From contig CAUJIB010000090.1 of the NCBI GenBank assembly GCA_963205245.1, positions 1-60,004 on the forward strand: DNA of 60,004 bases. The letters run 5' to 3'. The notes beneath the pieces were generated by a model that did not search any database, was not told where the DNA came from, and saw only the letters and a program-made list of their open reading frames with translations. The stretch is from Pseudomonadota bacterium. GTDB lineage: Bacteria > Pseudomonadota > Alphaproteobacteria > Rickettsiales > SXRF01. Position 1 is the stretch's first letter, and the number at the start of each line of letters is the position of its first letter. The position numbers and the translations under genes are program-made. Positions 10,201 through 35,825 of the stretch are shown here, in pieces.

Positions 10201-10983
10201 TTATTCACTCACCAAGATACAAGCTTGTCCTTTAGATGATAAGGTTTTGCATAGTGACTTAGCTGAATCTTTGCCAGAAAAGCCACCTACTCTCAAACGA
10301 TAAAAAGTACCCTTTCCTACTATATCGGCTCTTACAATAATTGGTGATTTTACAGATAATTCAGGAAATTTTTTCTGAATTTTTACCCAAACATCACGTG
10401 CTTCTTTATCAGAGCCATATGCTCCCAGCTGTATTTTTTGTCCGCTGGATTTTGCTTGTATTTTATCTTTTGCGGGTTCTATTTTTTTCTCTGTTTTAGT
10501 TTCTTTTAATTCTTTTTGTTCTACAGGTTTTTCTGCGGTTTTTATTTCAGCAGTTTTTTTATCATCAATCCCTGATGCTTCTATCTTTTGTACGTCAATA
10601 GTCTCTTCAGAGATTGCTTTATTTTCTATTTGGCTAGTTTTGTTTTTTTCAATGGTTTTTTCTGTTTCGGTATTGGTAACAATAGGTTCTTCAGGAGCAG
10701 GAAGTACGCGCTCAACTTTAGCTGGTTGCTGGTTGTTTGAGAATGTTTCAAAAATAGTTTTATCCTGATTTGGGAATTTCATTCCACCCGGATCTAGCGG
10801 TTTTTCTTTTACCGGAGTATCTTCAGCTTCAACTACTAGCAAATCTTCTTCTTTGACTGATTCTTTTCCTACTTGATATGAATACCAAGCTAGAGATACG
10901 AAGCCAGCTACTGCCACTAATAATAATATAGTTGGAAACCATTTTGACATTCCGCGTGAATCATCATCATTTTCACTAGTCAT
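10201..10983 (-). CDS. SPOR domain-containing protein
   Basis: 260 aa. N-terminal TM, E/K-rich linker and a C-terminal SPOR-like QLGAYGSDKEARDVW...YRLRVGGFSGKDSAKSLC. Confidence 0.8.
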   Translation of the reverse strand: MTSENDDDSRGMSKWFPTILLLVAVAGFVSLAWYSYQVGKESVKEEDLLVVEAEDTPVKEKPLDPGGMKFPNQDKTIFETFSNNQQPAKVERVLPAPEEPIVTNTETEKTIEKNKTSQIENKAISEETIDVQKIEASGIDDKKTAEIKTAEKPVEQKELKETKTEKKIEPAKDKIQAKSSGQKIQLGAYGSDKEARDVWVKIQKKFPELSVKSPIIVRADIVGKGTFYRLRVGGFSGKDSAKSLCKTLSSKGQACILVSE

Positions 10984-21227: not shown

Positions 21228-24149
21228 TTATAAAGCAGCACATTTTTTATCCGGCGTGTTTCTAGTTATATCATAGGAAATTGATATTTCTGGGGAAGGA
21301 ATGTTAATATGAGCTTTATTATACTGTTTTGCTATTTGCGGATTCTCATTTAATACTTTTTCACGCGCCGAGTTTACATCCACCAAGAAAGGTTTATCAT
21401 CCTTCTGTTCAAGTTTTTTTGCAGCCATTGCCATTGCAAATTTACCGGCATCATCATGGCTTAATCCGCGTAATTCAGCATCAAGAAAGGCTGCCATGGC
21501 AACATCGCCAACACCGTTGATGTTGGTAATTTTTTCCTTAGCAGTAACAGGATAAGCCGGTATCACTTTATTCTTGGTAACTATAACCGCGCCTTTATCG
21601 CCGCGGGTAATAAAGGCAACAGGGTCAGAAGTATGACAAGTATCAATATTGTTTTTAAGCACACCTATATTAAAGGCCTTCTGAATTTTCTTTGTTAAAA
21701 TATCTATAGTTTCATCGTTAACTGGGCGATCCCCATTTATTCCGAAAACCCGACAAAATTCGCTATCATTGCCAACTACCATATTTGAGCTGCGTATCAA
21801 TTTTTTGAATTTTTGCGGATCACTAGGCCCAAAAGTTGCGTGGTTAGGGAGTGCAAGAATCATTTCCTTGCCATATCGCCAACGCAAATGGAGAATATCA
21901 TTTGTAAGGCTATCGCCTAATTTTTCGGTAATGGATCCGGGTAAATATATTACATCTGACGTTGCAATGCTTTTTTCCAGAAGGTTTTTATCTTTACTTA
22001 GTAGTTCTCCCAGTGCTGATGCCTCATTCCCAGCATAAGTTACTATTATATCTTGTGAGCCATTTTTTATAAAATGGGAAACAGCAGTTTTTACTGGTAT
22101 TTCTAATGATAAATGGGAAGTAAGTAAATCTATACCGGAATCTTTTAAGTGGTTTTTTATAACCTTTCCATACTCATCATCGCCAACCGCACCTAAATAA
22201 GAAACATGGAGATGATCAGCAGGCTGCAGCTTTTTAAGAGCACTCAATGTATCTAAAGTCGCTCCGCTGACATCAATATTATTTTTATCACTGCCCTCAA
22301 GTAATTTATTATGGGTTTCCTCTCCAATGCTTATTTTTGAGCCTTCTCTTGCAAGCTGATTTTGGTCAATATAGGAAATTTTATCGTGGGGATGGTGAGT
22401 GGCGGCAATTAGCAGGTCAGCGGTAAGTATTTTTGTTCCCCTATGTCCATTCTGGAGATCTTTTTCTGTAAGCCGTACTTCTTCATCAACTCCTTTAAGC
22501 CCTCTTCTGGTATATTCAAAAGGCCCCATAATAATTTCTTTTTCCGCGCCTATTTTTTTGCGGGTTTCCTGATCCATGGTTTTTGTAAGGTCTAATATAA
22601 TATTATTATTGCCCATGTTATAAGCGCATAATACAGTTTGTTCATCGGTATGACGCAGAAAGGCAAAAACATCATTTGGTGTATTCTCCAAAACAGTAAT
22701 CTTCCCAGTGCGTAATGCGGGATTATCCTGCCTTTGTTTGATGAGGCTACGGGTAAAATTCAACATAGAGGTATCTTGGGATTCCTGAAGGTTTACCGCC
22801 AAAGGCCCGTAGCTTTGTGGTAGAGGCAGGTAATGTTTTTTGGATTCAGAAAAATCTTCATGATCCCATGGTATTCCAGCTCTGGCGATGTCGCGCCCGC
22901 CAAGTGTATCACGTATTTTATGATGGGGAATGTCTTCAGGTATACGTGCATCCGGAAGTCCCAATTCTTCCCCCTGATACATGCAAACCGATCCGGGCAG
23001 GGAAAAATTAAGGGTCATTATCTGCTTTAATACAGTAGTCCGTAACTCTTCTGGCAGGTTTGCCGGAAGCATCCTGCTTGCGGCTCTGGAAAAATCATGG
23101 TTACTTAGGGAGTTGCACATTGCCCCGCCCGGAAAATGATTTTCTATGTCTTTTACATGGTCTTTTAATTCCTGTGCTGATGGGTAACCGGTGGTTTTTT
23201 CGCTGCTATAATTCGGCCAGAATTTCATTTCTGTATAGCAGGTATGGATACCGGTTTCGGGATGCACATAATCCCGCGCCACCTCCATAGATTGGAATCC
23301 ACCATTTCTACCGGCAACTGCTTCGCCTATGGCAATTTTTTTATCTGGGTAATTATCAAGCATTTTACGAATTTTAGCGACATATTCTATAGTTTGCGGC
23401 TGGCACATACTATGGTCAAATCTTTGCGAATCCCATGTGTTTCCACCGGGATTATCCCTAAGCTGCGGGTCATAATTTGCAAAAGGCAGGGCATCGAGAC
23501 GTAGGCCATCCACCCCTTTATCCAGCCAGAATTTCATTTCATTTATAATTGCATCCTGTACATGCGGTTCGTTTGCATTTAATGATGGCTGGCTGGAGGC
23601 AAAATGATGCATGTAAAACTGGTTGCGTTTCTTATCAAAAGTCCATGCGGGTTCATCTTTTCCCTTAAAAACTGACTTCCAGTTATTTGGCGGTATCGGG
23701 TAGCCTTTTTCATCCTTTTTCCCATCATTCCATACATAACGGTCTGTAAAACCATTTTTTCTCTCGCGGCTATTTTGAAACCATTCATGATCATCAGCAG
23801 TATGGCACATCACAAAATCGGTATATACCCGTAACCCTTTTTTGTGCGCAGTTTCAAGCAGCTTGTCAAAATCTTCCATAGTACCGAATTTTTCACCGAT
23901 TTTGCGGTAATCGGTTACAGCGTAGCCACCATCACCTTTTTCACCCTCCGGTGATAAGAAAAATGGGGATATCCAGATAGCATCAACATTAAGGCTTTTG
24001 ATATAATCCAGCTTTTCGGTTATGCCTTTCAGATCACCATGACCACTTCCTTGAGAATCCTTGAAGGATGCTGGATAAATCTGGTAAATAACCTCCGATT
24101 GCCGATTAGGTGCTATCTTTTCTTTTGTTATTTCCAATGATTGGTTCAT
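21228..24149 (-). CDS. fusion protein: GH13 alpha-glucosidase-like domain plus PfkB-family sugar kinase domain
   Basis: 973 aa. GH13 regions are DFVMCHT, DGLRLDALPF, IGEAV and LSNHDFSRA in the first ~560 aa. The C-terminal ~370 aa carry PfkB marks (GAVGDDEYGK.. and NINGVGDVAMAAFLDA). Confidence 0.85.
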   Translation of the reverse strand: MNQSLEITKEKIAPNRQSEVIYQIYPASFKDSQGSGHGDLKGITEKLDYIKSLNVDAIWISPFFLSPEGEKGDGGYAVTDYRKIGEKFGTMEDFDKLLETAHKKGLRVYTDFVMCHTADDHEWFQNSRERKNGFTDRYVWNDGKKDEKGYPIPPNNWKSVFKGKDEPAWTFDKKRNQFYMHHFASSQPSLNANEPHVQDAIINEMKFWLDKGVDGLRLDALPFANYDPQLRDNPGGNTWDSQRFDHSMCQPQTIEYVAKIRKMLDNYPDKKIAIGEAVAGRNGGFQSMEVARDYVHPETGIHTCYTEMKFWPNYSSEKTTGYPSAQELKDHVKDIENHFPGGAMCNSLSNHDFSRAASRMLPANLPEELRTTVLKQIMTLNFSLPGSVCMYQGEELGLPDARIPEDIPHHKIRDTLGGRDIARAGIPWDHEDFSESKKHYLPLPQSYGPLAVNLQESQDTSMLNFTRSLIKQRQDNPALRTGKITVLENTPNDVFAFLRHTDEQTVLCAYNMGNNNIILDLTKTMDQETRKKIGAEKEIIMGPFEYTRRGLKGVDEEVRLTEKDLQNGHRGTKILTADLLIAATHHPHDKISYIDQNQLAREGSKISIGEETHNKLLEGSDKNNIDVSGATLDTLSALKKLQPADHLHVSYLGAVGDDEYGKVIKNHLKDSGIDLLTSHLSLEIPVKTAVSHFIKNGSQDIIVTYAGNEASALGELLSKDKNLLEKSIATSDVIYLPGSITEKLGDSLTNDILHLRWRYGKEMILALPNHATFGPSDPQKFKKLIRSSNMVVGNDSEFCRVFGINGDRPVNDETIDILTKKIQKAFNIGVLKNNIDTCHTSDPVAFITRGDKGAVIVTKNKVIPAYPVTAKEKITNINGVGDVAMAAFLDAELRGLSHDDAGKFAMAMAAKKLEQKDDKPFLVDVNSAREKVLNENPQIAKQYNKAHINIPSPEISISYDITRNTPDKKCAAL

Positions 24150-24312: not shown

Positions 24313-24358
24313 TGGTGGCTCGGGGGTGATTTGAACACCCGACCAAGGGATTATGATT
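24313..24358 (-). repeat. displaced 3' half of tRNA(CAU) (att junction, host-derived copy)
   Basis: 46 nt matching 33714-33759 with 4 substitutions. The 21-bp identical core cccgaccaagggattatgatt is at 24338-24358. Confidence 0.85.
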
Positions 24359-24452
24359 TACTTGTTACCATACAATATAATGTAAAATATCACTTAGCCT
24401 TGATAAAATACCCCTTGATTATTATATATAATAGTATAACTAATAGTAAGCT

Positions 24453-24507
24453 AGATAACATAATGAAATATGCAGAGAGGCTATTTTTTGTTATCTAGCA
24501 GTTATCT
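24453..24507. promoter_or_regulatory. arm-type repeat cluster (AGATAAC / GTTATCT x2, 11-bp phased) next to int
   Basis: agataac at 24453, gttatct at 24490 and 24501. A 26-bp near-copy of attttttgttatct..gttatcta lies at 33642-33667. Confidence 0.6.
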
Positions 24508-24519
24508 AGGAGGGGTATT

Positions 24520-25764
24520 ATGCCAAAAGCAAAATTGACAGATTTTTTTGTTAAAAATTCAAAATGCTCGCCTGATAAAATCAGAGAAGAAATTTTTGAT
24601 ACCGAGCTTCCAGCGTTTGCTTTACGGGTGACTTCTAAGGGGTTGCGTAGCTTTGTTTTGTATTACAGGGCAGGAAAGAAACAACGCTGTATTACTATAG
24701 GTAATTATCCAACCAAAACACTCAAAGATGCTAAAGACGAAGCAAAAGAAATACTAGTTAATCTAAAAAAGGGGAAAGACCCTCTGGTTGATCGCGCTGA
24801 TACCAAATACAAACTACATATTGCCGCTACTAGCGTTCCAAATACCTATGAAACCATGATTGATTCATTTGTGGAAAAATATCTGAAAGCAAAAGGCAGG
24901 CGCACTTGGCACGAAATAGAAGTAAAACTAAAGGGCGCACCACTTAAAAAATGGAAGGGCTGGGAGGTTGAAAAAATCACAAGGCAGCACGTTCGCGAGT
25001 TAATAGAAGAAGTATTTGATAACGGTAATAAGCCCATTGCTGCTAACCGCTTGTTGGCACATTTAAAAAGATTTTTCGGATGGTTATGTGAAAAAGATAT
25101 TATAGAATCATCACCAGCCCAGCACATTAAAATGATGGGCGAAGAAACAAAACGCGAGCGTTTCTTAAAACGCGAAGAAATAAAAAAGTTCTGGGAAGTT
25201 TGCGAATCGTTAGAATATCCTTGGAAACAACGCTTTCAGCTTGCATTAGCAACTGGTATGCGCGGGCAAGAAATTATGCGTATGCGTTGGAGCGATATAA
25301 ATACCAAGGAAAATATATGGACTATACCAGCCGAAGATTCAAAGAATGGTATGGCTCATGACGTGCCTCTATCAGACCTTGTGCTGGATATTATAGAATC
25401 AATTCCCCCTATGTCAGACACGTATGTTTTTACCACTATGCTAGATAAGCATATTACCCATAATAATAAACAAACAAAAAAATTATATAACCTATGTAAG
25501 TTTGATACCCTTTGGACATTACACGATCTACGCCGTACTGTTGCAACCTTTCTAGGTGAACTTGGATATGAAAAAGACATAATAGGTCGTGTGCTGAACC
25601 ACAAAGGAGCATTTTCACAAACTGACACATACCTACGACATAAATACTTAAAAGAAAAAGCAGTTGCACTAAAAGCATGGGCGAAAGAATTAGAGAATAT
25701 TGTATCAGGCGAACCACACAAAATATTAACCCTGCATCGTCATCCAACTACGCAAAAGAAATAA
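24520..25764 (+). CDS. int: tyrosine site-specific integrase (P4-like, with N-terminal arm-binding domain)
   Basis: 414 aa. N-terminus LTDFFVKN...FALRVTSKGLRSFVLYYR. Catalytic set ATGMRGQEI (R), HDLRRT (HxxR), VLNH and DTYLRH (Y). Confidence 0.95.
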   Translation: MPKAKLTDFFVKNSKCSPDKIREEIFDTELPAFALRVTSKGLRSFVLYYRAGKKQRCITIGNYPTKTLKDAKDEAKEILVNLKKGKDPLVDRADTKYKLHIAATSVPNTYETMIDSFVEKYLKAKGRRTWHEIEVKLKGAPLKKWKGWEVEKITRQHVRELIEEVFDNGNKPIAANRLLAHLKRFFGWLCEKDIIESSPAQHIKMMGEETKRERFLKREEIKKFWEVCESLEYPWKQRFQLALATGMRGQEIMRMRWSDINTKENIWTIPAEDSKNGMAHDVPLSDLVLDIIESIPPMSDTYVFTTMLDKHITHNNKQTKKLYNLCKFDTLWTLHDLRRTVATFLGELGYEKDIIGRVLNHKGAFSQTDTYLRHKYLKEKAVALKAWAKELENIVSGEPHKILTLHRHPTTQKK

Positions 25765-25780
25765 CAGTCAAAAACTAATG

Positions 25781-25803
25781 ACAAGTGATATATAGTCACT
25801 TGT
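25781..25803 (+). terminator. hairpin after int (weak terminator or binding site)
   Basis: acaagtga-tatatag-tcacttgt is a perfect 8-bp stem, but no U-tract follows. Confidence 0.3.
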
Positions 25804-25869
25804 TCCAGCAATAAAATCATATTGAATTACCTGTATATTATCTGTATATTCTGTGTCATTATTATACCC

Positions 25870-25898
25870 AGATAACCACTAGATAACAGCAAGGTAAC
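25870..25898. promoter_or_regulatory. three 11-bp-phased AGATAAC/AGGTAAC repeats abutting the start codon of the putative terS
   Basis: agataac at 25870, agataac at 25881 and aggtaac at 25892, with the ATG at 25899. Confidence 0.5.
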
Positions 25899-26267
25899 AT
25901 GCCAGAACAAAAGCGGATACGCAAACATCGCAAGCGGATAGGTGTTTATAGTAGTGATACCACCCTCAAGAACATAGACGAGCGTACTGTTGAAGGTAAA
26001 CTGATAAGCACTATTACTCAGGAACTCTATACACACGTTGGTGGCAATCCTACCGTTGCCGAGCAGCTTCTTATTCAAATCATCAGCCTCAAGGCAATGA
26101 GAGTGTCTTTATATGCAAAACTACTGATAGAGGGTAGCGCACAAGACACAGAAGATAGGTTTTTAACACTAAGTAATTCACTACGTAATGATCTCAACCT
26201 TCTTGGTATAAAGGCAACCAAACAGGAAGCCCCTGCCCTTCACCAATATATCGAGGGCAAGGCATGA
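25899..26267 (+). CDS. putative small terminase subunit (call based on position)
   Basis: 122 aa with basic N-terminus MPEQKRIRKHRKR. 4-nt overlap with the large terminase gene. Confidence 0.4.
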   Translation: MPEQKRIRKHRKRIGVYSSDTTLKNIDERTVEGKLISTITQELYTHVGGNPTVAEQLLIQIISLKAMRVSLYAKLLIEGSAQDTEDRFLTLSNSLRNDLNLLGIKATKQEAPALHQYIEGKA

Positions 26268-27664
26268 ACATCATTCAAGCTATAGATGATCCAAAGCTGT
26301 TAAAACCCTGCCTAAAGGGTGAATCATGGCATGAATGGCGGATGGTGCTTAAAGCCCTGTTTGCTCTTCCTATGGATGATAATGAACTAGAAATGTTTAA
26401 GGCTATTACTGGAAGAAATACACCACCTCAGAAGCCTGTAAAAGAGGGCTGGTTTATTGCTGGTAGAAGAAGTGGTAAAAGTAATGTATCGGCACTCATT
26501 GCCGTATATCTTGCTGCTTTCGTAGATTATCGCCAACACCTTGCCAGCGGCGAATATGCAACCGTCATGCTGCTTGCTGCTGACCGTGACCAAGCCAGAA
26601 CACTAATTCGCTATGTTAAAGGCATATTGCATGACGTTCCTATGCTAAGTTCACTTATAGAGGCAGAATCGAAAGAAAGTATAACATTGAAGGGACGTGT
26701 AGTTATAGAAATACACACAGCTGGATTTCGTGCTGTGCGTGGCTACACCGTTGTTGCTGCAATATGTGATGAGGCTGCATTCTGGCGCAGTGATGATACC
26801 GCAAACCCTGATTTAGAAGTGCTTGCTGCGCTTCGCCCTGCCATGCTAACAATACCAAACTCTATGCTGCTAGGGATTAGCTCTCCTTATCGCCGAGCAG
26901 GAGCACTCTGGGAAGCATATCGTGATCATTACGGCAAAGATGATAGTGACGTGCTAGTGCTAAAAGCTAGCAGTAGAATAATGAATCCATCGCTACCGCA
27001 AGCAGATATAGATGCTGCTTATGCGCGCGACCCTGCCTCTGCCTCTGCTGAATATGGCGCAGAATTCCGTAGTGACATATCAGGATTTCTTGATAGCAAC
27101 TGGATAGACAGAGCCGCCAATCTTCCCGATGGTGAGTTACCACCAATAAATGGAATACGTTATTTTGGCTTTATTGATCCTTCTGGTGGTCGTAAGGATA
27201 GCATGACAATAGGTATTGCACATGTTGAAGAATCAGGGCAAGTGGTACTGGATGTTATACGTGGACGCAAACCACCATTTGAACCATCAAGTGTCGTATA
27301 TGAATTTACTGATATTCTGAAACGATATGGACTTACTCGAGCAACTGCTGATAGATATGGTGCGGAATGGGTGAGTGCAGAATTTAGAAAAGTAGGAATA
27401 ACGCTGGAAGCGTCATCAAAAAGCAAAAGCGACATATACCTTGAAATAGAACCACTGTTTGCCCAAGGCGGTTTACAGATGCCAGATAATCATAAATTAC
27501 TATCTGAATTCCGCCAATTGGAACGTCGCACTACTCGCAGCGGAAAGGATAGTGTAGACCATCCGCCACATGCACATGATGATTTTGCCAACTCTGCTGC
27601 TGGTGCCTTGTGGCTTGCCTCTCAACCCAAAATACAGTGTTTGCCAAGCGTGCGCCAGCTATAA
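26264..27664 (+). CDS. terL: phage terminase large subunit
   Basis: 466 aa. Walker A GRRSGKS, Walker B/coupling AAICDEAAFW, and a C-terminal RNaseH-like nuclease (GFIDPSGG ... HDDFANS). Confidence 0.9.
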   Translation: MNIIQAIDDPKLLKPCLKGESWHEWRMVLKALFALPMDDNELEMFKAITGRNTPPQKPVKEGWFIAGRRSGKSNVSALIAVYLAAFVDYRQHLASGEYATVMLLAADRDQARTLIRYVKGILHDVPMLSSLIEAESKESITLKGRVVIEIHTAGFRAVRGYTVVAAICDEAAFWRSDDTANPDLEVLAALRPAMLTIPNSMLLGISSPYRRAGALWEAYRDHYGKDDSDVLVLKASSRIMNPSLPQADIDAAYARDPASASAEYGAEFRSDISGFLDSNWIDRAANLPDGELPPINGIRYFGFIDPSGGRKDSMTIGIAHVEESGQVVLDVIRGRKPPFEPSSVVYEFTDILKRYGLTRATADRYGAEWVSAEFRKVGITLEASSKSKSDIYLEIEPLFAQGGLQMPDNHKLLSEFRQLERRTTRSGKDSVDHPPHAHDDFANSAAGALWLASQPKIQCLPSVRQL

Positions 27665-27756
27665 CATATTGATTTATATATAAGTGAACATAGATGAACA
27701 TTAAGTGAACATTAAGTGCATATATAACATATTGATTTATATATAAGTGAACATAG
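27661..27756. repeat. iteron cluster A: 33-bp direct repeat x2 enclosing AGTGAACAT-type 9-mers
   Basis: ataacatattgatttatatataagtgaacatag occurs at 27661-27693 and 27724-27756. agtgaacat is at 27683, 27704 and 27746, and gatgaacat at 27693. Confidence 0.85.
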
Positions 27757-27766
27757 TGACAGGTGC

Positions 27767-28738
27767 TTAAAAGATAATAGGTTCATCTTGTGGTATTAAA
27801 TTATAATATCCATTTTGTTCTCTGATAAGTTTCTTCATGCTAGAAAGTGCACGTTGAGTACCGCGCAAACTTTTCTTTAATTCTTTGGCAATTTCTTTTG
27901 AGCGCATAGGCTTTTCTTTCAACAAGCTTATAATCTCTCTTTGCTTGTCAGAAACATTTTCATACTCATCAGCTTCGCCTTCATATTTCCAGCAAAGTGT
28001 TTCATTATTGAATCTAACCTTAAATTTTCGATCACCGTCAAATTTATCGGTGATAAAAACCAAACCCTCAGCGTTTCTTTTTTCTCTTTTTAAAGAGATG
28101 ATGCAATCTGCAGCCGCCACAATTGCCTGACTGCCTAAAGCATCCTCAAGATGATTATCATCAACTGATGCACCTTTGCGGTCATGGTGAATTAGCAAAA
28201 TTACAATCTTTTGTTCATGTGCAAGGTTTTTTAATGCGCCGAGGAATTGGTAATTTTCACTAAAATCATCACGCTTTCTACCTTTAATGGCTTTTCCATA
28301 AGTATCTATGATAACAAGTTTGATTCCCTTTTGCTCAAACAGACAAGCTCTTAAATCTTCTGCGCCACCGTCATCTATTGCCTTCCAACTCATATGCCAA
28401 TCTAACAAAGGCGGAAAATGCTCACCGTTGCATTGTTTATTCATCCTATATTTTACTAATCGTTCTTTATCTTCGTAGGATAGATATAGCACCCGCATTT
28501 TTTCAGCTTGCGCATCGAATATTTCAGACTCAGAAGCAACAGCGATGGCAAACTGCATTGCTAAAATACTTTTTCCTTCCTTCGGCTTCCCTTTAAGCAA
28601 CACCAAACCTTCATCTGGCAACAATCCATGTATTAGATATTTTGGGTCAGGTATCTGCATTATTTCAAGTTGTGAGCTTGAAAGATAACCATCACGCCAT
28701 GTTCTTTTTATATCTGCCTGTTTGCTAATTGCTTGCAC
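27767..28738 (-). CDS. RepA/DnaB-like (RecA-fold) ATPase with C-terminal winged-helix domain
   Basis: 323 aa. Walker A GKPKEGKS, Walker B KLVIIDTYG and IVILLIHHDRK. The C-terminal ..REIISLLKEKPMRSKEIAKEL.. looks like a wHTH. Confidence 0.75.
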   Translation of the reverse strand: MQAISKQADIKRTWRDGYLSSSQLEIMQIPDPKYLIHGLLPDEGLVLLKGKPKEGKSILAMQFAIAVASESEIFDAQAEKMRVLYLSYEDKERLVKYRMNKQCNGEHFPPLLDWHMSWKAIDDGGAEDLRACLFEQKGIKLVIIDTYGKAIKGRKRDDFSENYQFLGALKNLAHEQKIVILLIHHDRKGASVDDNHLEDALGSQAIVAAADCIISLKREKRNAEGLVFITDKFDGDRKFKVRFNNETLCWKYEGEADEYENVSDKQREIISLLKEKPMRSKEIAKELKKSLRGTQRALSSMKKLIREQNGYYNLIPQDEPIIF

Positions 28739-29043
28739 ATTTCCTCACTTACTTTTGATGTTAATTTATCTATAAATTCTGGCTTACATAAAGATATAAG
28801 TGCCATCTCTAGAATTGAGTTTTTTAGTTCCAAGGAGTAAAACCGCTTCTGGTAATCAGCAGCGCATAACTCTGCTTCGTGAAATTTACCCTCCAACAAT
28901 TTTAGATCTCGCTGGAGGGTAAGAACATCAAGACGCGTGGTTTGATAGCGAAACATCTTTGATTCTGGACATATCTGGTCGCGAACCATTTCAATTTCGC
29001 TATCAAGCGCATGTATTTCTTGGTTGAGTTGCTCAATGCTCAT
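28708..29043 (-). CDS. hypothetical coiled-coil protein (island)
   Basis: The start is moved to the ATG at 29043, one nt after the upstream TGA, giving 111 aa. The end overlaps the repA-like start. Confidence 0.5.
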   Translation of the reverse strand: MSIEQLNQEIHALDSEIEMVRDQICPESKMFRYQTTRLDVLTLQRDLKLLEGKFHEAELCAADYQKRFYSLELKNSILEMALISLCKPEFIDKLTSKVSEEMCKQLANRQI

Positions 29044-29044
29044 G

Positions 29045-29302
29045 TCAGTTCTTAGTAGCTCCCTCAACACTGATCATAAGAGCTTTCTCTAACCTAGCCT
29101 TTGCACCACGAAAAAACTCCAATTCCTGAGCAGTACTTTCCAAAGCTAAATCCATGCTTTGAATCATAAGCTCAAACCCAATAGGATTTTGCTTCATTGT
29201 TTCGATAAGATTATTATCGCTGGTAGCTAGAAGTTTCTGCGCTTCATAATAAAACCTAATCCTACCGCTTATGATTGTTTCTAGGGTTTCTGGTTTTATC
29301 AT
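29045..29302 (-). CDS. hypothetical protein (island)
   Basis: 85 aa. 4-nt start/stop overlap with the upstream ORF. Confidence 0.5.
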   Translation of the reverse strand: MIKPETLETIISGRIRFYYEAQKLLATSDNNLIETMKQNPIGFELMIQSMDLALESTAQELEFFRGAKARLEKALMISVEGATKN

Positions 29303-29523
29303 GCAGCCTCCCTTTTGATAGTTTCGTATCTATTTTTATCCAAGCATATCGATTTTAATTTACCTGTTGCTTTATCGTAAAAGCAGGCGTGAACTTGTTT
29401 AAAAAAAGGGTAATCGTCAAAAACCACATACTGGTCCTTGTAAGATTTAAGGTTTGGAGTGGCAGTATCGATACAAAAAGGATATTCATTATCGGCGTAG
29501 TCTAATCTAGTGCTAGTGTTCAT
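29299..29523 (-). CDS. hypothetical protein (island)
   Basis: 74 aa. Overlaps the upstream ORF by 11 nt. Confidence 0.5.
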   Translation of the reverse strand: MNTSTRLDYADNEYPFCIDTATPNLKSYKDQYVVFDDYPFFKQVHACFYDKATGKLKSICLDKNRYETIKREAA

Positions 29524-29743
29524 AAAAAACTCCTTTGCTTTGATTGTTGAATGTTGGTAGGAAAGGCACGGGCAATTTTATATGCCTGTGATACGTGGGT
29601 TTCTGCATTGTTACATTTGCATTAACCATGGTATTTGCTTGCTTTGTGGTGATGCTGACCGTCTCCCCAGACTCTGCCTGCATCACCGCGTTGCCCCGCT
29701 CTAGAATTGCTTGAAGCGGTGAAGATATATGTTGCCAGCTCAT
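29513..29743 (-). CDS. hypothetical protein (island)
   Basis: 76 aa. 4-nt overlap with the end of alpA. Confidence 0.45.
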   Translation of the reverse strand: MSWQHISSPLQAILERGNAVMQAESGETVSITTKQANTMVNANVTMQKPTYHRHIKLPVPFLPTFNNQSKGVFYEH

Positions 29744-29934
29744 GCGCCCCTCGCCGCCTTCCGACCTTCAAGAAAAGCATCAACCTCACCTTCGTCCCAT
29801 GACACAAATCTCTTTCCTTGACGGATGCGTTTTGGAAATTCCCCTTTATTTTCCAGTTCCATCAAATATGGATTACTGAAAGTAATGCCCTTCTCTTTTA
29901 GCTGTTTTCTATTAATTAACCGTAGCTTAGTCAT
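29740..29934 (-). CDS. alpA: AlpA-family phage transcriptional regulator / excisionase-like HTH protein
   Basis: 64 aa. LINRKQLKEKGITFSNPYLMELENKGEFPKRIRQGKRFVSWDEGEVDAFL matches the AlpA pattern. Confidence 0.8.
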   Translation of the reverse strand: MTKLRLINRKQLKEKGITFSNPYLMELENKGEFPKRIRQGKRFVSWDEGEVDAFLEGRKAARGA

Positions 29935-29985
29935 AAAAAAACCCCTTGTAATTATTGAATTAAAATGGTACTGTATATAAATAAT

Positions 29986-30037
29986 GCAGTATTTTATATA
30001 ATACTGCTAAACTAAATATAAATGCAATGACATTGCA
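29986..30037. promoter_or_regulatory. operator-like palindromes in the divergent alpA / orf177 control region
   Basis: gcagta-N10-tactgc at 29986-30007 and tgcaat-gac-attgca at 30023-30037. Extra TACTG(C/T) half-sites at 29968 and 30052. Confidence 0.4.
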
Positions 30038-30071
30038 AGTCAATACAATTTTACTGCGATAAAGGGAATAT

Positions 30072-30605
30072 ATGATTAACAGAGATAATTTAAGGGGTTA
30101 TTGGTTTACTGGTGCGGACATTGAAGCCGCTTGCAACTCTCTAGTGCCTGAAGTTGTAATTAGGGACTGGGTACAAAAGGGAAAATTCAATGAAACCTTA
30201 CCTGAAGGAGCGCGCGGCAAGCCTCGTAAATACCCATTAAATGCTGTTTATGAAGCAGTTATTATGTCGCACCTTTCTAAGCTAGGAGTGTCTTTGGATG
30301 ATGCAAAGGAAGTTAATTTACAAGTTCTTGATAAAATTACCCTCACTCAAAGAGAGGGGCATATTGGATGGATTGTCTTTGGTTCTGATAATTTAAAACC
30401 CATCTATACCCGTGATAATTTAGAAAGCAGAACTTTTGGTGAATTTGCTAAAATATTGTGGGTTGATAAAAAACTTTATTACGGAGCATCACAGACAGTT
30501 ATAAATGTGCAAGCCATTATAGACTATACAGACGAAATACTTTTAGAGCGCATCAAAGAACGCATGAGAAAATTGCTTAATGACCCATCAGTCACTGGCG
30601 AATAA
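30072..30605 (+). CDS. hypothetical protein, possible HTH regulator (island)
   Basis: 177 aa. The N-terminal ..ADIEAACNSLVPEVVIRDWVQKGKF.. resembles a MerR/excisionase-type HTH. Transcribed divergently from alpA. Confidence 0.45.
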   Translation: MINRDNLRGYWFTGADIEAACNSLVPEVVIRDWVQKGKFNETLPEGARGKPRKYPLNAVYEAVIMSHLSKLGVSLDDAKEVNLQVLDKITLTQREGHIGWIVFGSDNLKPIYTRDNLESRTFGEFAKILWVDKKLYYGASQTVINVQAIIDYTDEILLERIKERMRKLLNDPSVTGE

Positions 30606-30629
30606 AAGAAAAGGCAGGATTATAAATAT

Positions 30630-31748
30630 ATGGAACAAGCCACTATACAACAAGCAGTTGAGCATTTAACTGCTGAAGCAATGAATTTTAAAGATAGATA
30701 CGAGCAGCGCATAGATTTGCTGGAAAAAGCAGCAGCTCGCCCTCCGTCAGGCGCAGATTTCAATAATATACACGTACTTGAAAATCCACAAATGAAAGCC
30801 TTTGGTAAGTATCTACGAAGCGGCGATGACGGCGAGTTAAAATCATTACAATCCAAAGCAATGTCTGTAGGTTCTGATCCTGATGGTGGTTATTTAGTTT
30901 TACCTACACAATCCAGCAGGATGATTGAGCGACTGTTTGATACATCACCAATGCGTGCCGTTGCCACCGTGGAAACTATCAGTACAGATTCACTGGAAAT
31001 GTTTAACGATGTAACAGAGCTTGAAGCATCATGGACTAGCGAACAGGGTACTCGCTCTAACACTAGCACTTCTACGCTCGGCAAATATAATATTCCAGTG
31101 CATGAGGTATATGCTAGCCCGAAAGCCACACAAAAACTTATCGATGATTCAAGTATAAACATTGAAAGCTGGCTATTAGGCAAAGTTAATAAGGTTTTTA
31201 CCCGTAAGGAAAATGATGCCTTCATCAATGGTAATGGCGTAGGTAAACCAAGAGGATTTTTAACTTACACAAACAGCACTGGCGGAGATTCCACTCGCAC
31301 ATGGGGAGAAATTCAATACGTACCCAGTGGCACATCAGCTGTTGTTGAGCCAGATTCATTATTTGATTTGATGTATGCATTAAAAAGCGAATACCGCCCT
31401 GGTGCATCTTGGTTAGCACCGCGTGCGCTTATAAACTCTATACGCAAGAAAAAAACAGGAACAGGTGATTATATATGGCAACCTGCATTAACCGCAGGTG
31501 AACCAGATAGATTGCTTGGCTTTCCGCTGATGTATGCCGAAGATATGCCTGCGGCGGGCGCAAGTAGCCTTTCAGTAGCTTTCGGGAATTTTCGTGAAGC
31601 CTATACTATCGTTGATCGTCAAGGCATTCGAGTTCTTCGTGATCCATTCACTGACAAGCCAAATGTAATTTTCTATTCGACAAAACGAGTTGGCGGCGCA
31701 GTAGTTAATTTTGATGCAATTAAATTGCTAAAGCTGAGTGTATCGTAG
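30630..31748 (+). CDS. phage major capsid protein, HK97 family
   Basis: 372 aa. Coiled-coil N-terminal delta-like region, then DPDGGYLVLP and AFINGNGVGKPRGFL, both typical of HK97-fold capsid proteins. Confidence 0.9.
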   Translation: MEQATIQQAVEHLTAEAMNFKDRYEQRIDLLEKAAARPPSGADFNNIHVLENPQMKAFGKYLRSGDDGELKSLQSKAMSVGSDPDGGYLVLPTQSSRMIERLFDTSPMRAVATVETISTDSLEMFNDVTELEASWTSEQGTRSNTSTSTLGKYNIPVHEVYASPKATQKLIDDSSINIESWLLGKVNKVFTRKENDAFINGNGVGKPRGFLTYTNSTGGDSTRTWGEIQYVPSGTSAVVEPDSLFDLMYALKSEYRPGASWLAPRALINSIRKKKTGTGDYIWQPALTAGEPDRLLGFPLMYAEDMPAAGASSLSVAFGNFREAYTIVDRQGIRVLRDPFTDKPNVIFYSTKRVGGAVVNFDAIKLLKLSVS

Positions 31749-31773
31749 AATTAATTTAGGTGTTGATTGTTTT

Positions 31774-31810
31774 ATCCCCGCCTTTCCTTTCAAGGGGCGG
31801 GGATTTTTTT
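31774..31810 (+). terminator. rho-independent terminator after the capsid gene
   Basis: atccccgcc ... ggcggggat is a 9-bp GC-rich stem followed by ttttttt. Confidence 0.8.
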
Positions 31811-31820
31811 AGGGGGATAA

Positions 31821-33512
31821 ATGGCTGATATTGCAGAGCTGACCGTACGCATTAAAGCAGATGCGGCGCAGCTTTCTGCTGAGATGAAAAAAGTTAACGC
31901 CATTGTTCAGCAAAGCAGCGGGAGTATGTCATCATCTCTAGGTGGACTTAAAAGCCAGATGCTATCGCTTGCGCCTGCGCTTTCCGCCGTAGCTTTTGTG
32001 AATTTTGCTAAGGGTGCATTTGAAGCTGCTGACAGGCTTAATGATTTATCACAGCGCACCGGAGTTGCAGCGACTACATTATCGGCTCTGAATATCCCCC
32101 TATTGCAGGGCGGCTCTAATGTTGAGGAGTTTTCCGCCTCTATCAATAAAATGAATAATATGATTGGCGAGGCTGCAAAGGGCGGAAGTCAGGATTTATA
32201 CGACACCTTTAACAAGCTGGGCTTGTCAGTAAAAACACTGATGCAGCTTTCTCCGGAAGAGCAATTTTATGCTATTTCTAAATCACTGAACGAGATAAAA
32301 AACCAAGCCGAATTCACCAACACCGGCATGGCTATATTTGGACGCAGTTTTTCGTCGCTTGCGCCGCTGATTCGTGGAGCAAACGGCAATTTAGCAGATT
32401 TTGTGGATACGGCAAAAAAGGCTGGGAATGCAATTACCGACGAAAACCTACAAAAAATCGATGATTTTGGCGATAAATGGACAGAAGTTATAGAGAAAAT
32501 AAAGAAGGAAATAGTAGAATTTACACCGCTTTTAGATAAAATAATAAAAGCAGTAGACCTTTTTAATACTAGTAAAAGGGCTTTAGGAGTTACCGGTATC
32601 GCTGTTGGTGCTGATTTGGGGCTGATAGACCCAGAGACGGCTGCTTTCGCTTATGAAGAAGCGGCCGCAAAGGCTACTGGCGTAGGAGCTATAAATTTGG
32701 ATTCGCATACTGATAAGCCTAAAACCAAGGCTAAATCAGCTTCCGGCTCTAACCCCAACGTCAAGGCGATGAATGATCAGAAAAAAGCCATTGACGATGC
32801 AAAAAAATCACTTGATGACTATACCAAATCTCTAGAACGCCAACAAATGATGGCGGGTAAAACTCCACAACAGCAAGCTGGTATGGAGGCTTATTTCAAG
32901 ACCATAGACCTTGCGGAAAAAGCCGGAATAAAGAATGCGGAACAATTAGCTCGTGGCAGATATGAAGTTGCCGCCGCCACCTTTGAAATGAAAGAAAAGC
33001 AGGATGAGGCAATAAGATCAGCCACTCTGATGCGCGATACGCTGTCAACCTCAATCACCAGCGCAATAATGGATTTTAACAATGCCAGTGATGCAGTTAA
33101 TAACTTTGCGAAAGCGATAGCTAATACAATTATCCAGAAGAAAATAGCCGACCCGCTGGCTATGGCAATTGTAGGCAATGGAAGCAAGGGCAGCGGCATG
33201 ATTGATGGTTTGCTTCACTCTATTGGTATTCCTGGATATGCAGTAGGCACAGATTACGTTCCTAATGACATGATAGCAAAAATCCACAAAGGGGAAATGA
33301 TTATTCCGGCAGCCGAAGCGCAGGCAATTCGTAGCGGTGGTAGTAGTGGCGGAAGCGGTGTTACCGTGGTGCAGAATATTAGTTTCGCATCCGGCGTTAC
33401 AAGGGCAGAAGTGGCAAATATGTTACCATCCGTAGCGCAAGCTGCTCATGATGCGGTATTTGCCAGCATTCAGCGCGGAGGCAGCGCGGCTAAGATAGTT
33501 GGCATAAGGTAA
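31821..33512 (+). CDS. phage tail tape measure-like protein
   Basis: 563 aa, alpha-helical and Ala/Lys/Gln-rich. N-terminus MADIAELTVRIKADAAQL.., C-terminus ..YVPNDMIAKIHKGEMIIPAAEA, typical of tape measure proteins. Confidence 0.8.
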   Translation: MADIAELTVRIKADAAQLSAEMKKVNAIVQQSSGSMSSSLGGLKSQMLSLAPALSAVAFVNFAKGAFEAADRLNDLSQRTGVAATTLSALNIPLLQGGSNVEEFSASINKMNNMIGEAAKGGSQDLYDTFNKLGLSVKTLMQLSPEEQFYAISKSLNEIKNQAEFTNTGMAIFGRSFSSLAPLIRGANGNLADFVDTAKKAGNAITDENLQKIDDFGDKWTEVIEKIKKEIVEFTPLLDKIIKAVDLFNTSKRALGVTGIAVGADLGLIDPETAAFAYEEAAAKATGVGAINLDSHTDKPKTKAKSASGSNPNVKAMNDQKKAIDDAKKSLDDYTKSLERQQMMAGKTPQQQAGMEAYFKTIDLAEKAGIKNAEQLARGRYEVAAATFEMKEKQDEAIRSATLMRDTLSTSITSAIMDFNNASDAVNNFAKAIANTIIQKKIADPLAMAIVGNGSKGSGMIDGLLHSIGIPGYAVGTDYVPNDMIAKIHKGEMIIPAAEAQAIRSGGSSGGSGVTVVQNISFASGVTRAEVANMLPSVAQAAHDAVFASIQRGGSAAKIVGIR

Positions 33513-33515
33513 AAG

Positions 33516-33608
33516 ATGTTCACTATGTTCACTTGCTAGGGTTTCTGCGGTGTTGACATGTTCACTTACATGTTCACTACTAATTCACCTACTGCCGTAG
33601 GTTCATCT
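33516..33608. repeat. iteron cluster B: ATGTTCACT x4 plus two degenerate copies, inverted relative to cluster A
   Basis: atgttcact at 33516, 33525, 33558 and 33570. Degenerate aattcacct and aggttcatct follow. The 15-mer tcactatgttcactt (33520-33534) is the reverse complement of 27745-27759. Confidence 0.85.
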
Positions 33609-33641
33609 TAAACATAATATAATAACAACTGACAAAAGCTA

Positions 33642-33700
33642 ATTTTTTGTTATCTCAGCGTTATCTAATACACTGTTATCCAGCTTCATAAAAAGATAAC
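33642..33700. promoter_or_regulatory. arm-type repeat cluster (GTTATCT x2 11-bp phased, GTTATCC, AGATAAC) next to the tRNA junction
   Basis: gttatct at 33649 and 33660, gttatcc at 33675, agataac at 33694. This mirrors the cluster at 24453-24507. Confidence 0.6.
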
Positions 33701-33713
33701 CTACTGTAAAATA

Positions 33714-33788
33714 TGGTGGCTCGAGAGGGATTTGAACCCCCGACCAAGGGATTATGATTCCCCTGCTCTACCACTGAGCTACCGAGCC
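33714..33788 (-). tRNA. tRNA with anticodon CAU (elongator Met, or Ile2 if lysidine-modified), CCA encoded
   Basis: 75-nt cloverleaf GGCTCGG-TA-GCTC-AGTGGTA-GAGC-A-GGGGA-ATCATAA-TCCCT-TGGTC-GGGGG-TTCAAAT-CCCTC-TCGAGCC-A-CCA. The G1-C72 pair argues against an initiator tRNA. Confidence 0.93.
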
Positions 33789-33909: not shown

Positions 33910-34791
33910 ATGGCTAATCAACCGTTTAAAGTTGCCCTTATTCAAATGCAATGCTCCCAGAAACCTGAGGAAAGCTTGGCAAAAGCAGAAAAAATGCTAC
34001 TGCAAGCGGCAAAGGATGGTGCAAAAGTGGCCTGCCTACCGGAATTATTTCTGACTGATTATTTTTGTCAAAAACTAGACATCAATAAATTTAATATAGC
34101 TGAGCAGATTCCAGGAAAAACTTCAGATGCTTTAGGAAAAATCGCCAAAGAAACCGGCATGGTTATTGTTGGCTCTATTTTTGAGAAAGCTGCGGCTGGC
34201 CTGCACTATAATAGTGCCACAATTACTGACAGTGATGGGAAATTGGTTGGAAAATACCGCAAAATGCATATTCCGCATGATCCGATGTTTGAGGAAAAAT
34301 ATTACTTCGCGCAAGGTGATATTGGTTTTAAGGCTCATGATACCAGTGTGGGGAAAATCGGCACGCTTATTTGCTGGGATCAGTGGTATCCAGAGGGTGC
34401 GCGCCTGACTTCCATACAAGGAGCGCAGATATTATTTTACCCAACGGCAATTGGCTGGCATCCGGCAGAAAAAGCTGAATATGGTCAGTCGCAAGTGGAA
34501 GCATGGGAAACAATCCAGCGCAGCCATGCTATTGCTAACGGCGTATTTGTTGCGGCAGTAAACCGTATAGGACATGAAATAACGGTTGGTGACGGTTTGG
34601 AATTTTTCGGACATTCTTTTATTGCTGATCCGTTCGGGCGTATTCTAGCTATGGGCAGTCATGATAAAGAGGAAATCGTAAGTGCGGTTATAGATCCTGC
34701 CCTTATTGAAGAAACCCGCCGCAATTGGCCTTTCCTACGTGACCGCAGGATAGATGCTTATGGTGCTATAACGCAGAGATGGAACGGATAA
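33910..34791 (+). CDS. aguB: N-carbamoylputrescine amidase (carbon-nitrogen hydrolase)
   Basis: 293 aa. CN-hydrolase triad contexts CLPELF, YRKMHIP and LICWDQWYPE. Adjacent to aguA. Confidence 0.9.
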   Translation: MANQPFKVALIQMQCSQKPEESLAKAEKMLLQAAKDGAKVACLPELFLTDYFCQKLDINKFNIAEQIPGKTSDALGKIAKETGMVIVGSIFEKAAAGLHYNSATITDSDGKLVGKYRKMHIPHDPMFEEKYYFAQGDIGFKAHDTSVGKIGTLICWDQWYPEGARLTSIQGAQILFYPTAIGWHPAEKAEYGQSQVEAWETIQRSHAIANGVFVAAVNRIGHEITVGDGLEFFGHSFIADPFGRILAMGSHDKEEIVSAVIDPALIEETRRNWPFLRDRRIDAYGAITQRWNG

Positions 34792-35825
34792 TGACAAACT
34801 ACATAATGCCCGCCGAATGGGAACGCCACTCAGCCACATTGCTTGCATGGCCGCATAACAAAGAAGATTGGCCAGATAAATTTGCCCCAATTCCGTGGGT
34901 TTATGGAGAAATTATCCGCTATCTTACGCAAGTGGAGCGCGTAGCATTGCTGGTGCGCAATGAAAAGGAAAAAGCGCAAGCGATAGATGTATGTGAGAGA
35001 GCTGGCGCGGATACTGCAAGAATTGATTTTCATATTATTCCAACCAATAGAATATGGATGCGCGATAGTGGGCCTATTATAGTTAAGGATGCTTATGGTA
35101 AGAAATCAATGCTGGATTGGAAATTTACCGCTTGGGCAAAATATTCCAACCATAAACTTGATGATAAAGTTCCTTCATCACTGAATGAATCTTGGAATTT
35201 GCCGCGTGTACAACCTATGCACAATGGCAAACGTGTGGTGTTGGAAGGTGGTTCAATTGATGTAAACGGCAAAGGTACATTGCTTACTACTGAAGAGTGC
35301 CTGCTTGCGGATGTTCAGGTTCGTAATCCAAGTTTTACGCGCGAGGATTACGAGGAAGTTTTTGCTAAATATCTGGGAATTTCTCAAGTTATCTGGTTGG
35401 AAAATGGCATATTGGGTGATGACACGCATGGGCATGTTGATGATATAACCCGCTTTGTAAAGGTTGATACTATTGTAACGGTAGTTGAAAAAGATAAAGG
35501 TGACGCTAATTACGATTTGTTGAAAGATAATGTGAAACGCTTGAAAACTGCACGCGATCAAAACAGTAGACAATTAAATATTATAGAGCTGCCGATGCCA
35601 CGCCCAGTGGTTTTTGAAGGACAACGCCTTCCGGCTTCTTATGCTAATTTCCTTATCGCAAATGATCTGGTATTGGTGCCGACCTTCAACGATCCAGCGG
35701 ATAGGATAGCATTGAATATTCTTGCTGAACTGTTCCCTAAGAGTCAAATTGTAGGTATTCACGCTGTGGATCTAGTGTGGGGATTGGGTACAATCCATTG
35801 CATGAGTCAGCAGATTCCCTATTAA
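34779..35825 (+). CDS. aguA: agmatine deiminase
   Basis: 348 aa. MPAEWERHSATLLAWPH and C-terminal GLGTIHCMSQQIP (catalytic Cys). An alternative TAATG-coupled start exists at 34791. Confidence 0.92.
   Translation: MERIMTNYIMPAEWERHSATLLAWPHNKEDWPDKFAPIPWVYGEIIRYLTQVERVALLVRNEKEKAQAIDVCERAGADTARIDFHIIPTNRIWMRDSGPIIVKDAYGKKSMLDWKFTAWAKYSNHKLDDKVPSSLNESWNLPRVQPMHNGKRVVLEGGSIDVNGKGTLLTTEECLLADVQVRNPSFTREDYEEVFAKYLGISQVIWLENGILGDDTHGHVDDITRFVKVDTIVTVVEKDKGDANYDLLKDNVKRLKTARDQNSRQLNIIELPMPRPVVFEGQRLPASYANFLIANDLVLVPTFNDPADRIALNILAELFPKSQIVGIHAVDLVWGLGTIHCMSQQIPY

Follow-up and report, generated by a model that had tools for sequence, protein, structure and literature searches.

The window analysed here is the whole 60,004-nucleotide stretch of contig CAUJIB010000090.1 (positions 1 to 60,004), and our subject is a 9.4-kb island within it, inserted into a tRNA gene between positions 24313 and 33788. 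Between its two attachment (att) sites, the island holds 12 tightly packed open reading frames (ORFs), with about 91% coding sequence and 832 non-coding bases. A sequence-only reading had described it as a phage-like island. The view that it is an integrated element holds, but it is not a whole prophage, and its gene set points to a helper-dependent satellite.

ARAGORN identifies a single tRNA in the window, a tRNA-Met with anticodon CAT on the minus strand (33714-33788). The same interval is the sole Rfam match (tRNA model, 68 bits), which bears out the tRNA(CAU) gene proposed earlier. Its 1:72 pair is G-C, and it is therefore predicted to be a non-initiator tRNA, either elongator Met or lysidine-modified Ile. 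The 3′ part of the gene recurs in the same orientation, as had been noticed, with 42/46 identical positions (91%) between 24313-24358 and 33714-33759. These copies share an identical 21-bp core, CCCGACCAAGGGATTATGATT, which occurs exactly twice in the 60 kb (24338-24358 and 33739-33759); among 100 shuffles, no chance copy appeared even with two mismatches allowed. The core spans the anticodon loop as claimed, covering tRNA positions 30-50, that is, the anticodon stem and loop, the variable loop and the start of the T-stem. All coordinates given in the sequence-only reading are correct, and the element measures 9,401 bp from core to core.

In the usual model, an element of this kind brings a new 3′ part of the tRNA, and the host 3′ part is shifted to the far end. 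The arrangement in the window supports entry into the tRNA-Met gene by tyrosine-integrase recombination within the 21-bp core, by which the element would have replaced the tRNA 3′ half (33714-33738) with its own copy and moved the host copy to 24313-24337. The left site, attL (24313-24358, minus strand), is assigned from the repeat and the rebuilt tRNA as the displaced, host-derived tRNA-Met 3′ half, and the right site, attR, lies within the functional tRNA-Met(CAU) gene (33714-33788, minus strand), of which 33714-33738 would be element-supplied. With either 3′ half, the tRNA folds into a valid cloverleaf; pairing to the 5′ acceptor strand is perfect for the displaced copy and includes one G-U pair for the current one. 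When the displaced fragment is joined to the 33760-33788 side, the rebuilt attB tRNA is found, letter for letter, as an intact tRNA-Met in three metagenome loci (L108, L115 and L124). A fourth, L155, agrees with it but is cut two bases past the search pattern, and ARAGORN calls no tRNA there. These loci come from a scan of Joint Genome Institute (JGI) metagenomes with a degenerate pattern able to match attB, attP, attL or attR. All 80 loci recovered are ordinary tRNA genes, with the core lying within tRNA-Met in each and none being attP or attL, and the alternative that the 46-nt copy is a dispersed repeat fails on this result.

An island-free arrangement is seen in a relative, L144, whose aguB product is 68.5% identical to that of the window. 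There the tRNA-aguB arrangement is kept, and behind the tRNA come a terminator and ordinary genes, with no island; the other flank of L144 is not syntenic with the window, and the empty site is one-sided. A protein search with the GH13 flank among species-representative genomes did not find an empty attB with both flanks, its sole match being a 29% identical Lachnospiraceae protein. As a separate observation, a 156-nt contig from aquifer run X8 is identical to the displaced tRNA half and core of the window over 47 nt (24313-24359) and then continues into unrelated sequence (TGGGCTAGAAATGTCAATT...); in that run, the tRNA-Met site seems to be taken by another element.

The window sequence is present in four runs of one biofilm metagenome study, for which Logan contigs, not raw reads, served as data. 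Contigs of runs X1 and X2 end at the 30-mers that flank the core, and a 39-nt contig, ATTTGAACACCCGACCAAGGGATTATGATTCCCCTGCTC (ATTTGAACACCCGACCAAGGGATTATGATT|CCCCTGCTC), links the left-flank node to the tRNA 5′ half, forming the exact attB junction (depth 4.7 in X1 and 2 in X2). In X1, a 2.9-kb left-flank contig passes the end of the tRNA fragment unbranched, so the molecules carrying the attB words in this run share the left flank of the window. In X3, a contig crosses attL unbroken, and attB is thus undetected there. These observations are suggestive of a part of the population that lacks the island at the precise junction; they do not amount to evidence of active replication. Around window position 33772, runs X1-X4 contain a far commoner tRNA (depth 30-35), set apart from that of the window by a single additional A in the D-loop region and by its flank; other organisms, and not the island, therefore account for the high tRNA depth in these runs. 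A contig in X6 that joins 24344 to 33765 was considered as an empty site and rejected, since it contains 19 foreign letters and belongs to a different tRNA.

Just inside the left copy lies an intact P4-type tyrosine integrase, as predicted (414 aa, 24520-25764, plus strand). Both of its domains are present (Pfam Phage_integrase, 8.8e-21; Arm-DNA-bind_3, 5.6e-16; PHROG_1, 6e-60), and the R, HxxR and Y motifs are visible as ATGMRGQE, HDLRRT and TDTYLRH. The motif GTTATCT-N4-GTTATCT has four matches in the window, all inside the island, against 0.05 expected. One copy, GTTATCTAGCAGTTATCT, forms a P arm upstream of int (24490-24507, plus strand), 131 bp inside the left core; another, GTTATCTCAGCGTTATCT, forms a P′ arm (33649-33666, plus strand), 73 bp from the right core. 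A repeat search places the remaining two as overlapping inverted copies between int and the next gene (25870-25898, minus strand). Because the integrase has an Arm-DNA-bind_3 domain, we read these copies as the arm-type site layout predicted for an arm-binding integrase. The genes on either side are chromosomal, as had been proposed, with a 973-aa protein that fuses a GH13 alpha-amylase-family domain to a PfkB sugar kinase domain on the left (21228-24149, minus strand) and CN_hydrolase/aguB and PAD_porph/aguA on the right (33910-35825). Taken together, the rebuilt attB, the island-free relative, the arm-type repeats, the 39-nt junction and the intact ORFs support the earlier proposal of site-specific integration into the tRNA gene by the tyrosine integrase.

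The remaining genes fall into packaging, replication, regulatory and virion functions. Downstream of int, p122 (25899-26267, plus strand), a small terminase (TerS) candidate by position, overlaps with its stop codon the start of the gene for a 466-aa large terminase, TerL (26264-27664, plus strand; PHROG_2, 2e-26, with a weak Pfam Terminase_6N match). An origin-like region follows (27660-27756, plus strand), with a 34-nt perfect direct repeat (27660 and 27723), an AT-rich palindrome and four RTGAACAT iterons. On the minus strand lie a 323-aa AAA_25 (RepA/DnaB-like) ATPase, a putative replication initiator or helicase (27767-28738; Pfam AAA_25, 2.4e-26, and DnaB_C), which has a C-terminal winged helix-turn-helix (HTH_5, residues 265-290) and PHROG matches to primase/helicase families, and the alpA operon. 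The latter comprises four small ORFs, p120 (28708-29070), p85 (29045-29302), p74 (29299-29523) and p76 (29513-29743), none with a significant family match in Pfam, PHROG and other scans, and a 64-aa AlpA-family excisionase/regulator (29740-29934; Pfam Phage_AlpA, 3.3e-7; PHROG_2790 excisionase, 5.7e-6). A promoter-like site for the alpA side lies at 30043-30015 on the minus strand. The plus strand then encodes p177, a MerR-like HTH protein (30072-30605; Pfam MerR_1, weak at 1.5e-4), a 372-aa HK97-fold major capsid protein (MCP; 30630-31748; Pfam Phage_capsid, 1.5e-77; TIGR01554, 3e-105) and a full-length, 563-aa tail tape measure protein (TMP; 31821-33512; PHROG TMP families, 1e-25), with an intrinsic terminator between the last two (31774-31804, a 12-bp stem and then a T run). 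Directly after the TMP stop codon, a second cluster of four iterons, GTGAACAT, is inverted with respect to the first (33516-33577, minus strand). The two clusters account for 8 of the 13 RTGAACAT matches in the window. We take the first as the putative replication origin; for the second, a further initiator (Rep) site and a packaging site are both possible.

Equally informative is what the island does not encode. The nine longest ORFs were scanned with Pfam, PHROG and NCBIfam, the three smallest without NCBIfam and the 55-aa ORF at 24331-24498 without Pfam. No match to a portal, protease, tail tube, baseplate or lysis gene was obtained in these scans, nor to P4 Sid, Psu, Delta or alpha primase, or to Rpp or Ppi. 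For the portal, in addition to the lack of a family match, no other ORF in the island is long enough. Neither Peptidase_S78 nor any other match to a head maturation protease is present in the island, although three loci with related terminases (L038, L065 and L028) have one. No ORF of the island matches a head-tail adaptor or connector, a role from which the four small ORFs are not excludable by sequence alone. The missing virion genes have no room elsewhere in the island, because the ORF map leaves only the 832 non-coding bases. With 9.4 kb and 12 genes, and without full head, tail or lysis modules, the island is better described as a satellite than as a prophage. We consider it probable that the island is an intact helper-dependent satellite that brings its own TerS-TerL, MCP and TMP, takes the portal and the remaining virion parts from a helper, and is packaged in particles with chimeric heads and tails.

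The virion proteins themselves point to the type of helper. The TMP has about 60 full-length homologs of 490-620 aa, the closest of which (52-61% identical) occur in six siphovirus contigs (L091-L096), after a Phage_tail_2 major tail protein and two chaperone-sized ORFs and ahead of distal tail and tip genes. By homology and gene order, the 563-aa protein of the island is assigned as a genuine tape measure. In one of these siphoviruses, L095, both the TMP and the MCP are related to those of the island (58.5% and 53% identical, respectively), and among the genes of its lineage are those for a portal, Mu F, an S78 protease, an HK97 MCP and a lambda-like tail; TMP homologs occur on several contigs of 38-39 kb. 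In L095-type phages, about ten genes lie between MCP and TMP, versus 72 bp in the island. An L095-type siphovirus is the likely helper type, as suggested by these proteins of about 55% identity from other samples. Searched against 50,697 deposited phage genomes, the TMP gave matches to N-terminal pieces only, and no TerL relative above 27% identity was found among them. No cultured helper can therefore be named, as deposited phages have neither a close TerL nor a full TMP match. Compared with four phage homologs, the N-terminal delta region of the island MCP is 26-48 aa shorter.

The terminase pair belongs to a broader family. TerL has more than 1,800 homologs, and its invariant columns include Walker A (GRRSGKS), Walker B (DE) and the nuclease acidic residues. 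Apart from a 95% identical sister, P0001, the top 120 share 50-60% identity with it; these top relatives come from gammaproteobacterial metagenome-assembled genomes, Candidatus Nitrospira bockiana, Methylobacterium and many contigs, several of 9-11 kb. In locus searches with single proteins, the TerL query matched nothing and the capsid query matched one ordinary phage; a search with the TerL alignment succeeded. In 48 of about 86 TerL loci, the gene immediately upstream of TerL is a p122 homolog, and we therefore regard p122, from position and co-conservation, as the candidate TerS. The protein has no Pfam, PHROG, NCBIfam or PDB match, and neither its single sequence nor a 30-sequence profile matches any solved TerS.

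We then compared the gene content of loci with a related TerL. Five of them (L006-L010) are islands with an integrase, AlpA or an HTH protein, a primase or AAA_25 protein, a small ORF and TerL, to which L008 adds a 177-aa MerR protein and a capsid protein. Across 20 integrase-bearing loci, 83 ORFs of at least 200 aa around TerL were surveyed. Pfam identified Phage_capsid in four, TMP_2 in two, S78 protease in two, and Phage_portal and DUF4055 in one each; a further TMP in L028 and a tail fibre protein in L057 came from PHROGs, and one more TMP, in L023, from a hidden Markov model search. Overall, these 20 loci contain a capsid protein in four cases, a TMP in at least four, an S78 protease in two and a portal in one or two. 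In L065, the MCP is directly followed by an unrelated 921-aa TMP_2 protein. L038, an IMG/VR viral contig (1-9545), has a 123-nt exact terminal repeat and a 9,422-bp unit that encodes TerS, TerL, a 769-aa lambda-type TMP, an MCP, an S78 protease, an HTH_36 protein and a 177-aa ORF, with no portal and no integrase detected. The integrase-bearing members thus appear, from their gene content, to follow a recurrent portal-poor design, often with a capsid protein or TMP of local phages' families. More tentatively, the island might belong to a widespread, undescribed class of portal-less satellites built on a p122-family TerS-TerL pair, an integrase and a replication module, whose members acquire different single helper virion pieces (capsid protein, protease, tape measure or tail fibre) and form chimeric heads and tails; we regard this generalisation as possible, somewhat short of an even case.

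Several observations on individual loci accompany this survey. L038 is a complete mini-genome of nearly island size. The tail fibre protein of L057 (7870-10023) and the 809-aa TMP with an endolysin-like domain of L028 (10662-13091) each replace the capsid gene in these integrase-TerS-TerL islands. L008, a 10.5-kb Logan contig, has the same 18 nt, tRNA T loop-like, at 1-18 and 10532-10549 (TCGGGAGTTCGAATCTCT), and three copies of GGGGACCAAGTGGGGACCA beside int (87-115), before TerS (6709-6737) and at the other end (10367-10395); this contig probably spans an element from att to att, the repeats being its own arm or operator sites. We also considered whether the TerL clade is specific to satellites and rejected this, as distant integrase-less members precede portals of several families in ordinary phages. 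Among phages with a related TerL, unusual portal fusions occur in L041 (13156-15900), L072 (1863-4061) and L037 (2865-6404): Phage_portal_3 with a type IB topoisomerase, Phage_portal_3 with an inorganic pyrophosphatase domain, and a Mu-type portal with an intein and Mu F (1,179-aa ORF).

The spread of the TerL family across Gammaproteobacteria, Nitrospira and Methylobacterium also bears on whether the island could be a gene transfer agent (GTA)-like or other domesticated alphaproteobacterial head-tail remnant. The alphaproteobacterial host and the combination of an HK97 capsid, TerL and TMP do recall GTA clusters. However, the att repeats, integrase, AlpA and own replication module do not fit such a remnant, the island is absent at the tRNA-aguB site of L144, and GTAs have a portal, which the island lacks. 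We regard this explanation as highly improbable.

To what extent the island is maintained can be judged from its sister element. The 95% identical TerL (P0001) is encoded on a 7.8-kb soil-metagenome contig, L005, with the order int, p122, TerL, AAA_25, small ORFs, alpA, a 174-aa protein, MCP, the same terminator and a TMP start (MTDVAELTVRIKADA). A third variant, from an aquifer metagenome, joins the MCP 3′ end to a TMP start reading MVDVAELT. Comparison of the window with L005 gives a dS of 0.33-0.56 and a dN/dS of 0.063 for int, 0.077 for p122, 0.072 for TerL, 0.040 for alpA and 0.034 for MCP; for the small ORFs p120, p85 and p76 (84-89% identical), it is 0.26-0.32, and p74 is 56% identical over a partial match. 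Only two blocks are swapped, one consisting of AAA_25 and the adjoining repeats, the other of p177 and its upstream control region. L005 carries different iterons beside its AAA_25 gene, and the two p177 versions are 28% identical between neighbours at 95-98%. Such swaps would be expected of a cognate initiator-origin pair and a regulator-operator pair. Since L005 keeps the gene order, with dN/dS of 0.03-0.08 for int, p122, TerL, alpA and MCP, the gene set is maintained by purifying selection, and the island does not read as a decaying remnant. The long ORFs, proposed earlier to be undisrupted, are all intact and under purifying selection.

These data weigh on the explanation that the island is a cryptic remnant, in which a prophage of the roughly 38-kb siphovirus type at tRNA-Met lost most of its genes and left immobile debris with intact ORFs. 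The relatedness of both MCP and TMP to one 38-kb-class lineage, in which about ten genes lie between them, is what such a loss would leave behind, and neither a circle nor a particle has been seen. Yet deletions alone cannot give the observed order, with an inverted replication module between TerL and the capsid gene, and the island TerL is of another family than the TerL of the TMP-donor phages. A sister in another biome keeps the reduced order under the constraint described above, 91% of the island is coding with no pseudogene fragments, and the same reduced gene sets are seen again with TMPs of unrelated families, in one case as a terminally redundant viral contig of 9.4 kb. We judge a remnant quite unlikely.

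The candidate regulator of the island is p177, a putative master regulator or, alternatively, a DNA-recognition (packaging) protein. It has no PDB match. In L008, the 177-aa MerR protein lies on the same strand, two genes upstream of the capsid gene and adjacent to a divergent alpA-side operon.

Returning to the satellite interpretation, we hypothesized the following cycle. An L095-type helper siphovirus would derepress the element, the likely switch being p177 and AlpA, encoded on opposite sides of a 137-bp control region. AlpA and Int would excise the element, and the AAA_25 protein would replicate it from the iteron origin at 27660-27756. Its own TerS-TerL would package the DNA into heads that consist, in whole or in part, of the element's MCP, on a helper portal and with the helper protease; the shortened delta domain may favour a smaller shell for 9.4 kb. 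The own TMP would be built into helper tail parts to give a chimeric tail, by analogy with satellites known as PLEs, elements that resemble phage-inducible chromosomal islands. The particle would then deliver the DNA to a new cell, where Int would insert it into tRNA-Met. For the head step, in which a satellite MCP assembles on a helper portal with a helper protease, we found no exact precedent in the literature.

The same genes could instead serve an anti-phage interference island, in which a decoy MCP, TMP and terminase poison siphovirus assembly and which moves rarely or by other means. Satellites are known to block helpers via assembly proteins, and PLE11 targets the helper TMP (PMC12987554); the Tai systems of phage-inducible chromosomal islands (PICIs) reportedly target tail assembly (PMC11364771). 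From each of the head, packaging and tail pathways, the element has a single key protein, which would also suit a decoy. Against this, PADLOC recognises no defence gene in the island, and TerS-TerL, the replication module with its origin, and the integrase with its arm sites, under purifying selection, are what a packaged, transferable element needs. Interference is, moreover, not exclusive of transfer in known satellites. As the main role of the island, we find it unlikely.

Several points weigh against the satellite interpretation as a whole. The depth of the island equals that of its flanks, at about 7x in Logan contigs. The empty-site contig is only 39 nt long, and in run X7 of the same study a contig with the same A-type tRNA goes on into sequence other than the right flank of the window; this other context implies a second organism with that tRNA in the study, which could supply the attB words. 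The attP branch is absent from every assembly graph examined, the attP sequence was not found in IMG/VR by exact search, and in these computational data no particle, excised circle or helper was observed. As to the proteins, no tail assembly chaperone lies beside the island TMP. Portal and MCP normally co-evolve, so that an MCP encoded with neither portal nor protease is unusual, and the notion that the shortened delta domain biases the shell toward 9.4 kb is speculation. The TerS role of p122 is read from its position only. Finally, p177 has no homolog among 5.8 billion proteins, and an AlphaFold2 model computed without an alignment gave a predicted local distance difference test (pLDDT) score of 35, too low to be of use.

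Regarding the host, the GroEL, FliI (clade 3) and HolB proteins of the window best match alphaproteobacterial NCBIfam models. The cluster of proteins at least 90% identical to FliI includes entries labelled 'MAG: Rickettsiales bacterium' and 'Pseudomonadota bacterium', so the host is taken to be an uncultured alphaproteobacterium. The island would thus place a satellite in a Rickettsiales-like environmental alphaproteobacterium. Beyond the right flank, a 314-aa ORF without a family match (35835-36779, minus strand) lies between aguA and a BrkB-family gene, and around 36000-37000 the G+C content is 29%, versus 36-45% nearby.

Known satellites either remodel helper capsids, as do P4 and the Staphylococcus aureus pathogenicity islands (SaPIs), or encode a complete head and steal tails, as do the capsid-forming PICIs (cf-PICIs). 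The cf-PICIs were reportedly described by Alqurainy and colleagues in 2023. The island resembles them as a small integrative island with a tyrosine integrase, AlpA, its own replication module, an HK97 MCP and TerL, and in having no lysis genes and needing a helper for the rest. They differ in that cf-PICIs encode the whole head (portal, protease, head-tail adaptor, connector, TerS, TerL and HNH) and steal only tails, whereas the island has no portal, protease or HNH protein and no adaptor or connector match, and must share helper head machinery too. The SatelliteFinder model of cf-PICIs has 11 core components, of which at least nine are required (de Sousa et al. 2023; PMC10085698), and the 9.4-kb island has fewer genes than this core needs. 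By its gene content, lacking portal and protease, it falls outside the cf-PICI definition. SatelliteFinder also forbids tail and holin profiles for PICIs and cf-PICIs (PMC10085698), and elements like the island would be rejected if the forbidden tail profiles include tape measures. Some cf-PICIs and PLE-like elements do carry predicted tmp genes (PMC12987554, Extended Data Fig. 10).

The second point of comparison is the PLEs of Vibrio cholerae, whose own TMP was shown to be built into tails otherwise made of ICP1 parts (Nature 2026, PMC12987554); satellite TMPs and chimeric tails were first shown there, in 2026. The likeness lies in a satellite-encoded TMP, full length in the island, for which tail incorporation is proposed by analogy. 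PLEs are about 18 kb long, have a lytic myovirus helper, encode a tail assembly chaperone and a baseplate hub, and remodel helper capsids without an MCP of their own. The island belongs to an unrelated lineage and host, uses a tyrosine integrase in place of a large serine recombinase and has no PLE-like match. Identity to the closest phage TMPs is 52-61% for the island (siphovirus) versus about 20% for PLEs (ICP1).

Other satellites share some of these features. With P4-like satellites and Gram-negative PICIs, the island has in common a P4-type integrase, AlpA, insertion into a tRNA 3′ part and a size of about 10 kb. These two groups rely on the helper for capsid protein and terminase, whereas the island encodes an MCP and a TerL itself; for replication, it has an AAA_25 helicase and not an alpha primase. 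Unlike in the classical P4 layout, its integrase adjoins the displaced tRNA fragment, at the opposite end from the intact tRNA gene. The EPIPs of Mycolicibacterium (bioRxiv 2025, PMC12822802) are satellites with a capsid protein and a TMP, and MiniFlayer and MulchRoom (PMC10690885) are satellites encoding a capsid protein, like the island. They differ in having actinobacterial hosts, a serine integrase or none, and other gene sets (adaptor, stopper, scaffold, portal), and no sequence relationship was seen.

If the satellite interpretation is correct, the island represents an intermediate design, in which packaging, head and tail are each represented by one key protein and a portal is missing. 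Such a set implies that the particle is assembled jointly with helper parts at either end. This raises the questions of whether an MCP can nucleate on a foreign portal, whether the delta domain sets capsid size and what is gained from an own tape measure. With the related loci, the island points to a large, mostly uncultured pool of TerS-TerL elements across Proteobacteria, Nitrospira and others. Our best reading is that the island is closest to the cf-PICIs and the TMP-encoding PLEs and is a member of neither; in its predicted gene set, it resembles a cross between a cf-PICI, with its own MCP and TerL, and a PLE, with its own TMP.

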